A stretch of DNA of 64,000 bases from a virus (IMGVR_UViG_2703718814_000005:8034-72033); one strand, 5' to 3'. Shown: positions 15,001-27,000, counted from the first letter of the stretch. Numbers are program-made.

Positions 15001-18000
15001 TTTGAGTTTGCGCAGTCTCAGTTTGAACATAATAAAAACGTTGATCAGCGGAACTTTGATTACAGAGCCAAAGTTGACGACCGTAATTATGCACTGAAGG
15101 AAAGGGAGTTTAACGCTAACCAGAATTACCGGAATGCGTCGCTGGGTATGGAGCAGCAGCGACTCCGGATGCAGAAATACAACCAGCGACGGCTTGAGTA
15201 TAACGATATGCTGGCGCGCGATCAGCCTGTGATGGCGGCGCTTGGAAAGGCTGTGGATGCTGGCGATCGGGATGCAGCAATGCGTCTTTACGGCCAGTTG
15301 TCAGAGGGTAATCCGCTGAGGCTGATGGCGAATGATGGCTATGTAGCGAAAGCGGGTCAGGCCGTGAACAACCTGCAAAAAATCTTTGATGACAAGCCAG
15401 ACAGGGCTATCGCTTCACTTAATACGCCGGAGAATCTTGATGTCCTTTCCGGGGGGTTTGGCCCGGAACTGCAACAGCGTATTGGCATGCCCGATTCAAC
15501 CGGGAAAAAGACGATAAAAGAGGCCAGGATTGGCAGTATAGTACCGGCACAGCAGGAAGGGTACATACTTATCGGCCTTGATCTCACATACAGTGATGGC
15601 TCTACAGCACATAAACCTGTAACAGAATACGGCAGTGCGCACCCTGATGATCAAACCGTGCTGGCGATACCCGTTGATAAGGCTATCGCTCAGGTCAGGG
15701 ATCGCAGCAAATTTGCAGAGATATCGAAAAATTATGGTTATTTTATGCCGAAGCAGCAGGGACTTTCTCTGAAAGAGCTTCAGAAGGGGGCCAGCAACGT
15801 CGCGGCGGACGCGATCAAGAATGGCGGTAATGCACAGGCTGCGGTGGATGAATATTATGCTGCGACTGGTTCACAACCGCATCAACAGAAAATTCAGCAA
15901 CAAAAACTTCAGCAACAGGTTATCAACTGGGCGGGAGATGATCCTGATAAGCTGTCATTTGCCAGAAATGTAGCGGCCCGTCAGCCTGAAATGCTGGAGC
16001 CTCAGAATCAGAAATTGCTGGAGAACGGGTATGCGAATTTTCTCCGTATTCAAAAGGCCAGGGGGGAACAGGCCAGAGATGAAAGTGCTTCATCTGCATC
16101 TCAGTTTATCCGTGGACTGAAACAGAATTACGCCCAGTAATTCACGATATTCCATTAATACCATTTCCTGATGCCCGGCCATTGTGCCGGGTTTTTTTAT
16201 GGAGTCTGTATGGCCTATTCAGAGGAACAGCGTCCTGAGGCGCAACTCGGTAACCAGAATCGTAACAGCCTGAACATTCAGCAACCCGGCGAAACTGACA
16301 GCTATGAAGCATTTTTCTCTGATCCGAATCGCTGGAAGGATAACAGTACGTCGTTCAGCCTGGGCGATGTATTGCCAACAATGGGTAAAGGTTTCGCCCA
16401 GTCCGTCCGGGGAACAGGGGAAATGGCCCGTGGACTCGGTGATGCGATGATTCAGAGCCCGGTAAAAACAGGGGCGCGTATTTTAAATGAGTTCAGCCGT
16501 ATGGGGCTGCCGGGTGTCGCAACTGTGCAGGATATTTTTGCCGGTGGCAGCAGGGGGGCTGATGAGGTCATCGATACCCTGCCTGATGGCAAAAACGCGG
16601 TTACTGATACTGTCGGTAAAGGTCTGAAGGCAACCGGTAAGGCTGTCAGTGATGGTGCTGAAGCCACTGATGAATGGCTGACCGGTAAGATGTCGCCGGG
16701 TGCAGTTCGTGCGCTGAATACGCCGATGACCGAAGGCTATGATGATTCTGCGGTCTGGGTGGCGAAGGGTGTAAACCTGATTGGTGCGCTTGTACCTGAT
16801 ATGGTTGCTGGCGGTGTGGCTAAAAAGGTGGGTGATGTCACACTGCGAAAAATGCTGACCGCCGGGCTGGAGAAAAAATACATCGCGGCAGGGATGCAGC
16901 CGGAAAGAGCCACGGCACTGGCAGCAGAAGCTGTCGATAAAAAAATGCCGGATTTATTCCAGGCGGGCCTGATCACCCATTCCACAGCCAGTGCACAGGG
17001 GCAGAGTGCAATGGCGGCAGCAGATGCTGTTCTTAATGCGGATTACTCTGAGCTGGCGCAGTCACCGAAATTTCAGCAGACGTTTTTGTCCATTGACGCC
17101 GACCCGCAGCACGCACAGCTTACTGATCGCCAGAAAATGGATCTGGCAAAAGAGCGTGTTGCCGATGAGGTGCGCGCGCAGCTGGCAACCGATCCTGAAT
17201 TGCTGGCTGTGAATGCCATAGCGGCAAAACTGGGTGACGCACAACTGTTTAATCTGGTGACACGAGGCACAGCGAAGACCGTTAAAAGCGGCATTGTCAG
17301 AAATGCCACGGAACAGGGGGCGATTAATGCGGCGCAGGGCGGCTATTCACGCTATCAGGAAAACACGGCATTGCGTGAGACCGCCGGAATGGATGTGTCA
17401 CCGTGGGAGGGCGTGGCTGACGCAACGATCGAAGGTGCAGCCTTTGGTGCTGCGATGGGGGCTCCATCCGGTGCGGTTGCCGGATATCGTGGCAGACGTC
17501 AGGCCGCAGAAGAAGCAGCCATGCGTGATGCTGAAACCGTGCAGCAGGACGACGCAGCCCCGCAACCAGAATCTGTTGATCCGGTGGCGCAGCATCGTGA
17601 ATCCATGCAGGGGATGAATCGCGAGCAGCTTCTGGAGCAGTATGCTGATGCGGATATGGCAACAGAGGGGGACGCATCCGCAGCTCATCGCCGGGAAGCT
17701 GCCAGCCAGTTGTTGAATGAACTGGACGAACAGGCGAAGCGACAGGCTGTGATGAATGAGCTGAAGGCGAAGCCGCGTTCTGAACTGCTTGAGGAATACC
17801 GCAGACTCAGCCAGAAAGAGGAGCGCACCGAGACTGAAGAACAACAGTTTCAGGCAATACGAGAAGTCATTCGCCCACAACAGGAAGTGACGCCGGAAGC
17901 ACAGTCACAGCCTGAAAATGCGGAGGATGGTAACGGGAGCATTTACCCGACGGTGCGGTTCCGGGACCCGAATGAAGTCCGCATTGAAATTAACGGGAAT

Positions 18001-24000: not shown

Positions 24001-27000
24001 ACACCAAAACCTGACAGCCAGCTGGGAAGACGTTCAACGCCAGAAGCGTACAAGGCGTTTGCATTCTGGCTGAATGCGTTCTCAGGTGGCAGCCAGTATC
24101 GTCCCGGCGCGGTGGATATCACACCGGAATCGCTGAAATTCTGGATTGACTATATCTCCGGAGGGACAGGGCGCTTCATTTCCAAAACCACGGATGCGGC
24201 GGTGAAATCGCTGAATGGTATTGATATACCGGAACAGCAGGTGCCCTTCCTGGGGAAAATTTCGGGTGAGGTGATGCCGTATGCAGACCAGCAGAAGATG
24301 TACGACCGGATGACAGAGGTTGCGCAGTATCACGCAGAGCTGAAGAGTCTGACCGGTGCAGAAAGAACGGCGTTCATTGACGAGAACAACGGAAAATTGT
24401 TGATGAACGGGCTTATGCAGGATACCCGGAAGAGACTGAAGGATTTGCGCAAACAGCGCGATGCCATTTATGCCGACAGTTCTCTCAGTCTGGCGCAGCA
24501 GGCGGCGATGGTGAAATCGGTAGAGCGGGATATGAAGGTTGCCGTGGATCGCTTTAACCGCGAGTACAACAAAAAAGTGGGAGTGGATTAACAGAAATGG
24601 CCCCGTACGGAAGTGCGGGGCTGATTAAGAGATAAACACACATTAACCTGTAATAACCGGAGCTATTAACATATAGTCAGAAAGAGTATTTCATGTGAGA
24701 CAGAGAGCCGATTTATGTTTAATGAAGAAAAAGTTGCGCAAATGGCAGCGTATTTGCTGAAAAAGCATGGCGGATCTATGCGTTTCATTAAGCTGATGAA
24801 GCTGATGTATCTCTCTGACCGCAAAGCAATGGAGTCTTTAACCGGGAAGGGGAGAGGTTTGAATGCTCCCCCACAATTCCCCGGCATCAAATCTCCATGT
24901 AGGTGAACTATTTTACCCCCAGCGGCAAATCGCAAAAACAATCAGTGCGATCGAAATGGCAGCCACTACAATTGCAAATGCTTCAGGCTAGGTCATTGGC
25001 GTACCTCCTTCGGCGGTTCTGGTAGCGGCATCCAGTGGGTTACTTCTTTGAGATGCAGGTCTTCGCCATCACCGTCATCCCAAGTGGGATTGCCATCATT
25101 AAACCAGTCGCCATATACGCCGACCTGAGTGTTGGGGATGCTTGGTGGGTAGTTGTTTTTAAAGTCAGCTGCTAACACATAGTATTGTCGCTCTCCCATT
25201 TCTGGCATTCGATCACTACAGCTTATCCAACCATCCGGAGTTACCGGAACTGGCGGAACGGCTGTTTGCTCTCGAACGTCATTAGTCGCTATCGGTTCTG
25301 CTGCCAACTGACTGGCATATTTGTTAATGGTAACGATAAGCTCTTGCTCAGCCTCATCCAGACAATCACCGATACCTCGCCTGTCACCGTCAAAATCATC
25401 GAAATCGGCACGAATCTTGGCAACCTTCAGGATTGCGGACAACACCTCACTAGGAATTACCGGATAGTTGGTTGACGTTTCCGCGATTTCCCGAAAATTA
25501 TTGGTTGACGAATTCTTGTTTTCCCGAAAGTTTCCGGACTGAAGCATAGCGGCACGGCAGGCGTTCCAGCCTCTCACCTCTGCAATAGCGGCAACAGCAT
25601 CAACCGCGTACATGCTAAGAGGATTAGGCATTGGTTTTTCTTCCGGTACTACTGGTGCTGGAGGGGCGGCGTAAATGCCCTCTATCACTAAATGTTTGCG
25701 CTCAAAATCATCTGGCTCTCGATGATATACGTAACTCCAATCACCAAGGTTATCATTGCGCCTGCAACGGAAACCTATCGGCTCGGCTTCCAGCGCTGCC
25801 AGAGCAATTCGTGCCAGTTCTTCCGCTTCTTCTGCTGGCAGTACAACGTTGCTACCAGGTCCGTATGTTTCGCGCCACTGTTTGATTGTCAGCAGTCGCC
25901 CTTTGGTAATAGTGATCATGCCGCGTTTCCTTCTTTCTTATTAACAATCACACCGTCATATATTTCATTAAGGTGCCCTCTCAACTCCATGCGCCTTAAT
26001 GCAGATAACATGTAATCGCATTCAACCTGCTTATTCCCAGTAAATGGCTTATCGTCAGGATTACCCCAACAGCAATTACCCTTGGGCCACCCATGTACTT
26101 TCCGTACTCTTCCGTTAACAACGTGAAGTAATCCCCAGCCAGGTGGTAAATCCTCAATTGAAATAATTCCCGGCTCACTAATAAAGAATCGCCAGTCGCC
26201 CATTCCAAGAGACGGATTTTTACGGAAACGCTTTTTTCTATCTGCCAACAAGTCAGCACGAGAACACTTCGCCTCTATCAGGCATGATGCTGAATTTCTG
26301 AATCCCATAGCATCTGGCTGTTCTCCGGTACTGGTTACGGCTATAAAGCGGTCATGAAAGCAAACCTTGAACCCGTTGCGCTTAAGGAACTTGTACGCAA
26401 TCTGACAGAGTTCTCGGTGTGTTAACGCCATCTCACTCTCCTTTGATGCGAATGCCAACGGCGCGGATAGATTTCCATTGTTCCCACATGCGGTTGAAGT
26501 CTGTTCCTGATAAGGTCGCGTTACGGTATCCAGTTTCGGTGCGCAATCCTTCAAGCGTCGATTTGGAAATACAAATTGAATGCATTACCCATGATTCAAA
26601 CAAATCACGCTCCCGAGCTTCGCAACTTTGTTTACTCATCTCTTCAATGCATTGTTTAGCTTCTAAATCAGCAATTCTGTCAACCACGGCATCGACAGCA
26701 TCTGAAAAGCCGAACCAGTTGCTCCACTCCGGCCTGTTACCTGTTGCTGCAAAGTACATATCATCTAAAGCGGACTCAGCATGGTCACGCTCATTGATGA
26801 GTTGCTCTTCGCTTTTCTCCAGTTCAGCAATACGCTTACCCCCATCCGAGATAACACCTTCGTAATACTCACGCTGCTCGTTGAGTTTTGATTTTGTCTC
26901 CTCAAGCTCAACTCTCAGCTTCCCAACAGTAAGCGCAATATCCTCGTTCTCTTGGTCGCGGAGTTTGATGTATTGCTGTTTTTCGTCCAGCTCATCCAAC

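Follow-up and report, generated by a model that had tools for sequence, protein, structure and literature searches.

Short-tailed Shiga toxin (Stx) phages spread Shiga toxin genes among Escherichia coli and Shigella, and their virions contain about 20 copies of a giant protein that is essential. The closest described versions are Sp5 ORF80 (ECs1242), phi24B gp47 and Shigella phage 75/02 Stx gp68. We analyzed the orthologous gene in a stretch of viral DNA of 64,000 nucleotides (IMGVR_UViG_2703718814_000005:8034-72033, in the following called the window), which is a Sepvirinae Stx prophage. What the gene encodes is the giant virion protein already known from short-tailed Stx phages, not a new one: gene, length and position are the same as in the three orthologues and nothing material is different. 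The gene, its essentiality, its presence in the virion and its domain families are already known from the literature. What we add is a corrected domain map, a proposed division into a conserved frame and an exchangeable middle, the lack of a solved relative of the C-terminal module and the absence of cysteine as a signature, all of them leads for experiments.

The genetics come from Mondal et al., who deleted Sp5 ORF80 in frame in a K-12 lysogen (PMC5155283). The mutant (delta-ORF80) gave no plaques and no lysogens on K-12, DNA packaging was normal, the heads were normal-looking and the defect could be complemented (PMC5155283). The authors filed ORF80 under tail formation, since an anti-fibre antibody did not bind (data not shown), and suggested an AAA+ ATPase (COG1483) (PMC5155283). 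The Sp5 mutants were grown and assayed in the same K-12 MG1655 background. Because their DNA was already EcoKI-modified, EcoKI restriction cannot explain the lost infectivity.

The presence of the protein in virions, one of the checks proposed in an earlier note on this DNA, is documented for phi24B. Here gp47 has the second-highest spectral count, is estimated at 11–35 copies per virion and is absent from the electron cryomicroscopy (cryo-EM) map; the authors proposed that it is an encapsidated ejection protein (10.64898/2026.04.10.717836). Peptides from residue ~116 to residue ~2770 were each detected many times in the proteome (10.64898/2026.04.10.717836), and therefore the whole gp47 chain is packaged. 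In the gel bands the gp47 signal lies mostly in the top four bands, with a long tail, and the peptide sheet gives totals only. Portal and tail were fully modelled without gp47, and the genome of ~60 kb is housed in a T=9 shell (10.64898/2026.04.10.717836).

In the window the gene is a single uninterrupted open reading frame (ORF), and the ORF listing and the translation confirm the extent and codon number given by the earlier note. It is preceded by a hairpin that matters for the choice of the start codon:

16173–16199, + strand: terminator-like hairpin and T-run between the 421-amino-acid gene and the giant ORF, with a 7-pair stem, 6 G-C pairs and TTTTTTT after it (promoter/terminator scan)
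16210–24591, + strand: giant ORF of 8.4 kb, 2,793 codons plus stop

When the ATG at 16210 is used as the start, the product is 2,793 amino acids long. The longest reading, 16171–24591 on the + strand, starts at the first ATG and comprises 2,806 amino acids (ORF listing). We rejected this longer version. Its in-frame ATG at 16171 begins 2 nt upstream of the hairpin proper (16173–16192, followed by seven T), a GGAG is found at 16201–16204 upstream of the ATG at 16210, and the annotated start in relatives is the position corresponding to 16210; for these reasons 16210 was taken as the true start. Over the full 8.4 kb the nucleotide identity is 99.6% to Shigella phage 75/02 Stx gp68 (Sepvirinae) and 97% to VT2-Sakai (Sp5). 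Full-length matches were found in 186 phage records, and 427 of the 5,426 complete E. coli genomes contain the gene. The protein has a mass of 307 kDa and matches phrog_616 over its full length; the gene accounts for ~14% of the phage genome. As described earlier from the sequence, it lies at the far end of the structural module, being the last + strand gene after four tightly packed genes (13498–16140).

We consider it likely that the giant is an internal, ejected virion protein of the polyvalent kind, of which ~20 copies are packaged in the T=9 head along with the proteins encoded upstream. As in polyvalent proteins, several effector-type domains are found in one chain, encoded by the last gene of the head/tail module. 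The domains are arranged as follows:

16210–17499, + strand: N-terminal domain (residues 1–430), of narrow distribution, part of the proposed conserved frame
17500–18909, + strand: low-complexity linker (residues 431–900), acidic and basic, then Pro/Gly-rich (composition per 30-residue window)
18919–20529, + strand: LPD5/zincin/LPD1 module (residues 904–1440), first predicted metallopeptidase, probably of the CLCA_X family
20059–20073, + strand: HEWFH (residues 1284–1288), with H, E, W and H invariant in 69 sequences
20617–21279, + strand: second zincin-like metallopeptidase (predicted; residues about 1470–1690), HExxxH clade, outside Pfam
20860–20877, + strand: HEIIHH (residues 1551–1556), readable as HExxH and as HExxxH
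21352–21804, + strand: MuF-C / PBECR domain (residues about 1715–1865), predicted metal-independent ribonuclease (RNase)
21850–24588, + strand: C-terminal module (residues 1881–2793) containing LPD38, conserved and always C-terminal

LPD5, LPD1, MuF-C/PBECR and LPD38 were defined as polyvalent-protein domains by Iyer et al. (PMC5512222). In the giant protein Pfam finds LPD5 at residues 1051–1200, LPD1 at residues 1361–1440, MuF_C, and LPD38 in the C-terminal module, all four far above the cut-offs. When Pfam was run on the protein in seven segments, no additional family emerged for the N-terminal domain or the linker, nor for the region around the second HExxH or residues 1881–2473. Sequence searches against the PDB with the whole protein and with two profiles gave noise only.

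Several statements of the earlier note on the composition of the protein hold. The charged linker with Pro-rich tracts is seen in the composition of residues about 431–900. The protein contains neither the Walker A pattern [AG]xxxxGK[ST] nor its looser form GxGK[ST], Pfam detects no methyltransferase, helicase or RNA polymerase domain, and PADLOC returns zero matches. An ATPase family was not found either (Pfam, NCBIfam and PADLOC searches). We therefore rejected the AAA+ ATPase (COG1483), for which there is no Walker A and no ATPase family in Pfam or NCBIfam. The two HExxH motifs, HEWFH at residues 1284–1288 and HEIIH at residues 1551–1555, are present as described and are the only ones in the protein, with 0.036 expected from its composition. 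The idea of a packaged multidomain effector is largely supported, and the refuting conditions listed in the earlier note all came out in its favour, with moderate evidence as regards the fold. The protein is packaged and polyvalent and has two zincin-like domains; because it is essential for infectivity, it is not only an accessory anti-defence effector, and no DNA nuclease domain was found in it, the nuclease-like domain being a predicted RNase.

The first HExxH motif probably belongs to a zincin family, CLCA_X, which was defined by Lenart et al., is largely found in phages, prophages and plasmids and often occurs within very long proteins (PMC3650047). The NCBIfam model CLCA_X (NF041907) matches residues 1182–1437 with E=6e-44 over 243 of its 250 profile positions, at 150.4 bits and thus below the 260-bit cut-off. 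The likeness to the family consists in this sub-threshold match and in the Asp after HExxH, as in the family motif; the difference is that in Pfam the single domain is divided between the end of LPD5 and LPD1. Homologues of the LPD5/zincin/LPD1 module number more than 1,200, many of them stand-alone proteins of 400–900 amino acids. Among 69 homologues H1284, E1285, W1286, H1288 and D1291 as well as an upstream A-H1263-x-E are invariant. A phage-type peptidase clade has been described in which strand 2 ends in a His and HExxH is followed three residues later by an Asp, along with a second variant, HExxxH (PMC5512222); H1263 and D1291 fit the former. In an AlphaFold2 model of residues 1041–1700 the predicted local distance difference test (pLDDT) is 79 overall and, as far as residue 1450, mostly >85; the motif sits there on a helix (1282–1302) following two strands (1249–1252 and 1270–1273). 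A further modelled helix, 1373–1391, bears the invariant E1375 and E1382. Since this helix falls inside Pfam LPD1, the model indicates that LPD1 is the C-terminal helical half of the first peptidase and not a separate domain. Foldseek with the peptidase model against the PDB gave nothing significant. The nearest folds listed for the HExxH domains are MtfA, lethal factor, TTHA0227, Pro-Pro endopeptidases, jannalysin, Spartan, IrrE and Wss1.

For the second motif an exhaustive search with residues 1441–1710 gave 400 cluster representatives (E<=1e-3). These homologues are mostly parts of proteins of 1,500–6,000 amino acids; a few are solo proteins of 210–270 amino acids. Pfam has no family for the second zincin, nor for ten small stand-alone homologues. 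In 139 of 147 aligned homologues the motif reads RHE(I/V)(L/I)xHHG, i.e. HExxxH. In the closest relatives, including the protein studied here, a one-residue deletion leaves HEIIHH, with His kept at both positions. Conservation among the 147 homologues amounts to 99% for H1551, 100% for E1552 and 100% for the second His, and to 100% and 93% for E1607 and E1614. Judged from the aligned sequences, the second motif belongs to the HExxxH clade, which Pfam lacks. When the profiles of the two peptidase domains are aligned with each other, their strands and motifs fall in register (P=0.0013). Conservation of the two motifs, which had been named as a point to verify, is thus given in 69 and 147 sequences, respectively. 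Both HExxH motifs appear to lie in conserved zincin-like domains and these are predicted peptidases; the evidence from conservation is strong and that from the modelled fold moderate.

The third enzyme-like domain, MuF-C, is recognized by Pfam with E=3e-19 and 69 bits against a 27.6-bit cut-off. MuF-C is an RNase-like domain of the BECR fold; active members are marked by a His in the first helix together with a Ser or Thr in strand 4 (PMC5512222). In 32 non-redundant homologues H1752 is conserved to 100% and S1816 to 97%, the two residues being assigned to helix and strand by their position in the sequence only. As this pair matches the active BECR configuration, we predict that the domain is an active RNase. 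The phi24B preprint labels MuF-C a metallopeptidase and builds an idea of peptidoglycan degradation on it (10.64898/2026.04.10.717836). We rejected the metallopeptidase label: the fold is an RNase-like BECR fold according to PMC5512222, the His/Ser pair is kept and there is no metal motif.

The ends of the protein behave differently from its middle. Residues 161–504 match the N-terminus of the giant protein of Vibrio phage D56 with 28% identity. The N-terminal domain recurs only in Vibrio phage giants; apart from these, E. coli, Salmonella and Pectobacterium are the only sources of relatives of the first 1,040 residues. Hydrophobicity peaks within the N-terminal domain, at residues 181–199 (highest Kyte-Doolittle average over 19 residues in the whole protein, 1.38), and residues 406–433 give a very weak, sub-threshold glycine-zipper match (E about 0.1). 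What the Vibrio giant has in common with the Stx giant is limited to the two ends, namely the N-terminal domain and the C-terminal module, and the HExxxH peptidase.

Among the E. coli variants, residues 1901–2793 are 96–99% identical and the peptidase cores about 98%. Residues 801–1200 (18610–19809) and 1701–1900 (21310–21909) are only 72–89% identical, with residues 801–900 of the linker as a variable spot (72% identity). Recombination, or diversifying selection acting on LPD5 and MuF-C, may lie behind the divergence of these two segments. Furthermore, two natural in-frame deletion variants occur in E. coli, one joining residues 1–496 to 1693–2793 and the other 1–379 to 1383–2793. These forms (P0126 and P0295; 1,596 and 1,775 amino acids) are without the linker, LPD5 and one or both peptidases and have both ends kept. 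The 1–496/1693–2793 variant is located within an otherwise intact virion module at a prophage edge (gene at 8866–13656 of its own locus). The pattern of sharing with Vibrio, the in-frame deletions and the identity profile, all of them comparisons of sequences, suggest that the two ends form a conserved frame and that the middle is exchangeable.

The C-terminal module is the other part of this frame. Homologues with 34–58% identity span 97–99% of residues 1881–2793 and occur either alone (about 900–1,000 amino acids) or behind other domains. Its model (pLDDT 87.9, predicted template modelling score 0.85) is of high confidence, compact and mostly helical with a small beta domain. No solved structural relative of this 913-residue module was found, including among known ejection proteins. 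In giants of 1,679–4,511 amino acids from Vibrio, Ralstonia and Bacillus phages and from an archaeal virus the module is always located at the C-terminus:

Vibrio phage D56: giant of 3,066 amino acids ending in the C-terminal module
Ralstonia phage Gervaise: giant of 4,511 amino acids ending in the C-terminal module
Bacillus phage Page: giant of 1,679 amino acids ending in the C-terminal module
Methanosarcina virus MetMV: giant of 3,002 amino acids ending in the C-terminal module

The carriers of the module are podoviruses of Proteobacteria and Bacillus with genomes of ~40–70 kb plus the Methanosarcina virus. In the Stx, Vibrio, Ralstonia and Bacillus phages the virion module ends with the giant gene. 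For MetMV the record has no annotation, and the giant gene is followed by others on the same strand. In this archaeal tailed virus the 3,002-amino-acid protein is encoded at 1584–10592, and its C-terminal 830–900 residues are 28% identical to the Stx module. Gene product 28 (gp28) of Ralstonia phage Gervaise (3189–16724), annotated as 'DarB-like', combines an N-terminal SLT transglycosylase, an Eco57I-like methylase and LPD3 with the LPD38 module. Like the Stx giant it is encoded by the last gene of the virion module and has the C-terminal module (about 900 residues aligned at 27% identity); its cargo differs, LPD5/CLCA_X and MuF-C being replaced by SLT, the Eco57I-like methylase and LPD3. Another Ralstonia phage, GP4, has a T=9 capsid and a tail architecture very like those of phi24B (10.64898/2026.04.10.717836). 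The contexts of a stand-alone C-terminal homologue (P0154) and of a Pectobacterium protein (P0298) are prophage edges with possibly truncated genes and were uninformative.

A further property of the giant is its complete lack of cysteine. With 0 Cys in 2,793 residues the probability by chance is 4e-14 at a typical Cys frequency of 1.1%. The four upstream proteins (13498–16140) likewise have 0 Cys each, and the neighbouring capsid protein, fibre and 563-amino-acid nozzle-like protein have 2, 4 and 8. The homologous giants of Vibrio (3,066 amino acids), Ralstonia (4,511 amino acids) and Bacillus (1,679 amino acids) also contain 0 Cys. T7 gp15, T7 gp16 and the N4 virion RNA polymerase (gp50) are known ejected proteins and have 0 Cys as well; the T7 tail proteins do have Cys. 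Absence of Cys would be expected if a protein has to traverse both the tail, in an unfolded state, and the oxidising periplasm, and it may be a general signature of tail-ejected proteins.

For the giant as an internal, ejected protein we propose the following course of events. After release of the tail needle the protein would exit through the tail unfolded, ahead of or with the DNA. The conserved frame (residues ~1–430 and the 913-residue C-terminal module) would serve for incorporation into the head and would form or extend a path across the cell envelope. The swappable middle with the two zincin-like peptidases and the BECR-type RNase would be delivered into the cell. The peptidases would most likely cut their own polypeptide and free its parts; for the RNase, the target early in infection would be RNA of the host or the phage.

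Several points weigh against this reading. Ejection has never been observed, and we infer the internal location only from the absence of the protein from the map. The C-terminal module has no strongly hydrophobic segment and no structural relative among known ejection proteins, so that the conduit role is argued from analogy. The load, some 20 copies of a chain of 307 kDa, is far above that of the largest internal protein in T7 or N4. Finally, the failure of the anti-fibre antibody to bind delta-ORF80 particles (data not shown) would fit a function in assembly or an influence on how the tail is attached (PMC5155283).

This last point leads to the interpretation of Mondal et al., in which the protein is a tail-assembly or tail-structural factor that builds or attaches the short tail, perhaps in an energy-requiring manner, and delivers nothing to the host. 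It is in agreement with the location of the gene in the tail part of the late operon and with the phenotype of delta-ORF80, whose heads are DNA-filled and unbound by the anti-tail-fibre antibody, like those of nozzle and needle mutants (PMC5155283). However, the antibody result is given as data not shown, and portal and tail of phi24B could be fully modelled without the abundant gp47. The energy-requiring version based on COG1483 fails, as no Walker A or ATPase domain was found (Pfam, NCBIfam, PADLOC), and the two zincins and the RNase-like domain are the content of a polyvalent protein. We regard a tail factor as unlikely.

The authors of the phi24B preprint proposed that the peptidases digest peptidoglycan, so that the conduit reaches the inner membrane (10.64898/2026.04.10.717836). 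Cell-wall hydrolases are indeed common in podovirus ejection proteins, the SLT domain of the Ralstonia homologue being one example. However, the peptidase label in the preprint sits on MuF-C, an RNase-like BECR domain without a metal motif. The folds nearest to the true HExxH domains are zincins acting on peptides or proteins, with no cell-wall peptidase listed, and the same peptidase families occur in proteins of plasmids and conjugative elements. A role in peptidoglycan digestion is quite unlikely for these reasons.

Could the protein instead remain in the capsid, as a body that organises or pressurises the DNA in the oversized T=9 head and is inactive in the host? Its high copy number, its invisibility in averaged maps and a genome of only ~60 kb in a T=9 shell would be in line with this. 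Three enzyme-like domains show strict conservation of their catalytic residues, however, for which a passive filler has no need; the absence of Cys is common to known ejected proteins; and the N-terminal lytic transglycosylase of the Ralstonia homologue is useful only outside the capsid. We therefore judge a non-ejected capsid body very unlikely. An accessory anti-defence effector like P1 DarB, injected and dispensable in a host without the matching defence, is highly improbable, since the gene is essential although the phage was grown and assayed in K-12 MG1655 with EcoKI-modified DNA and since the protein has no methyltransferase, helicase, Walker A or PADLOC match, even though a weak match to a 'DarB-like antirestriction' PHROG exists through the LPD38 region (limited to residues 2351–2681) and the Ralstonia homologue with its Eco57I-like methylase domain is annotated in this way.

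Beyond the ejected giant of the Stx phages, a more general notion seems possible, which we put forward tentatively: the N-terminal domain and the C-terminal module may constitute an undescribed genome-delivery device, a universal carrier for exchangeable enzymes that are freed by built-in zincins, with the absence of Cys as a general signature. If the division into frame and middle is true, it tells which parts to mutate against infection and which parts act on the host, and the same reasoning extends to the giants of Vibrio, Ralstonia and Bacillus phages and of the archaeal virus. The lack of Cys could give a cheap finder for ejected proteins in uncharacterised phages.

The virion module in the window comprises genes for the major capsid protein, a collagen-like fibre, a 563-amino-acid ORF, a 422-amino-acid ORF, Lom, the four small genes and the giant. 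Those with assigned counterparts and the hairpin preceding the small genes are:

7877–9568: 563-amino-acid ORF, corresponding to the phi24B nozzle gp57 by position and size
9565–10833: 422-amino-acid ORF, corresponding to the phi24B needle gp56 by position and size
13455–13474 (with T-run to 13481): terminator-like hairpin just upstream of the 218-amino-acid gene
13498–14154, + strand: 218-amino-acid gene (Sp5 ORF76, phi24B gp51), candidate internal/ejection protein
14151–14603, + strand: 150-amino-acid gene (phi24B gp50), candidate internal protein, matching phrog_596, a function-unknown family
14613–14864, + strand: 83-amino-acid protein (phi24B gp49, annotated 'bacteriocin'), with a weak sub-threshold glycine-zipper match
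14875–16140, + strand: 421-amino-acid gene (Sp5 ORF79, phi24B gp48), essential virion protein and candidate internal/ejection protein

Deletion of Sp5 ORF76 markedly reduced infectivity, and ORF79 is essential with the same deletion phenotype as the giant gene (PMC5155283). According to the supplement of the phi24B preprint, gp48, gp50 and gp51 are present in ~20–36 copies each per virion (~30, ~36 and ~22, respectively) and all three are unplaced in the structure, and gp49 was detected at contaminant level only (10.64898/2026.04.10.717836). The match of the 83-amino-acid protein to Pfam Gly-zipper_YMGG (E=1.6e-5, 24.9 bits) is under the gathering cut-off of 28.9 bits. In relatives the annotated start of the 150-amino-acid gene is an ATG lying 6 nt downstream. 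Two terminator-like hairpins with T-runs (13455–13481 and 16173–16199) flank the four small genes as a block, and both are presumably read through by Q-antiterminated late transcription.

The giant gene is followed by early genes in the opposite orientation, after which come ynfF/ynfE-like host genes. The end of the prophage comes after an AntA-type antirepressor gene (27998–28636, minus strand), with the region 28600–43600 beyond it. Past this end we found two paralogous molybdopterin oxidoreductases of 808 amino acids resembling ynfF/ynfE and a YnfC-like gene. These are followed by Pfam domains of the mandelate racemase/enolase-like and zinc alcohol dehydrogenase types, tentatively read as rspA/rspB. 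A second integrase (39448–40743, minus strand) and an 823-amino-acid exonuclease mark the beginning of another prophage.

Compared with its Stx orthologues, the copy in the window is distinguished by the adjoining of the prophage end to the ynfF/ynfE-like host genes. A Xanthomonas phage cryo-EM preprint contains nothing on such giant proteins. The giant resembles the polyvalent proteins N4 gp50, P1 DarB and DdrB in carrying many effector-type domains in one giant chain encoded among virion genes, with a zincin metallopeptidase as hub domain; LPD5, LPD1, MuF-C/PBECR and LPD38 were all defined in this class of proteins (PMC5512222). It differs from these examples in having no RNA polymerase, methylase or helicase domains. 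The Dar proteins of P1 are non-essential, unlike the giant protein, and N4 gp50 is usually cited at few copies, whereas the copy number of the giant is far higher; like the giant, N4 gp50 is free of Cys. Searches of the PDB and structure comparison revealed no sequence or fold similarity to the ejection proteins of T7 and P22. These are three proteins in place of one chain of 307 kDa, the giant carries predicted enzymatic cargo, and the phi24B maps show no ordered internal core. Nevertheless, T7 gp14/gp15/gp16 and P22 gp7/gp16/gp20 share with the giant that they are contained in the virion, that they are encoded at the end of the virion module and that their mutants yield full but non-infectious particles. 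An SLT lytic transglycosylase domain is the hallmark of T7 gp16, where it is N-terminal as in the Ralstonia homologue of the giant.

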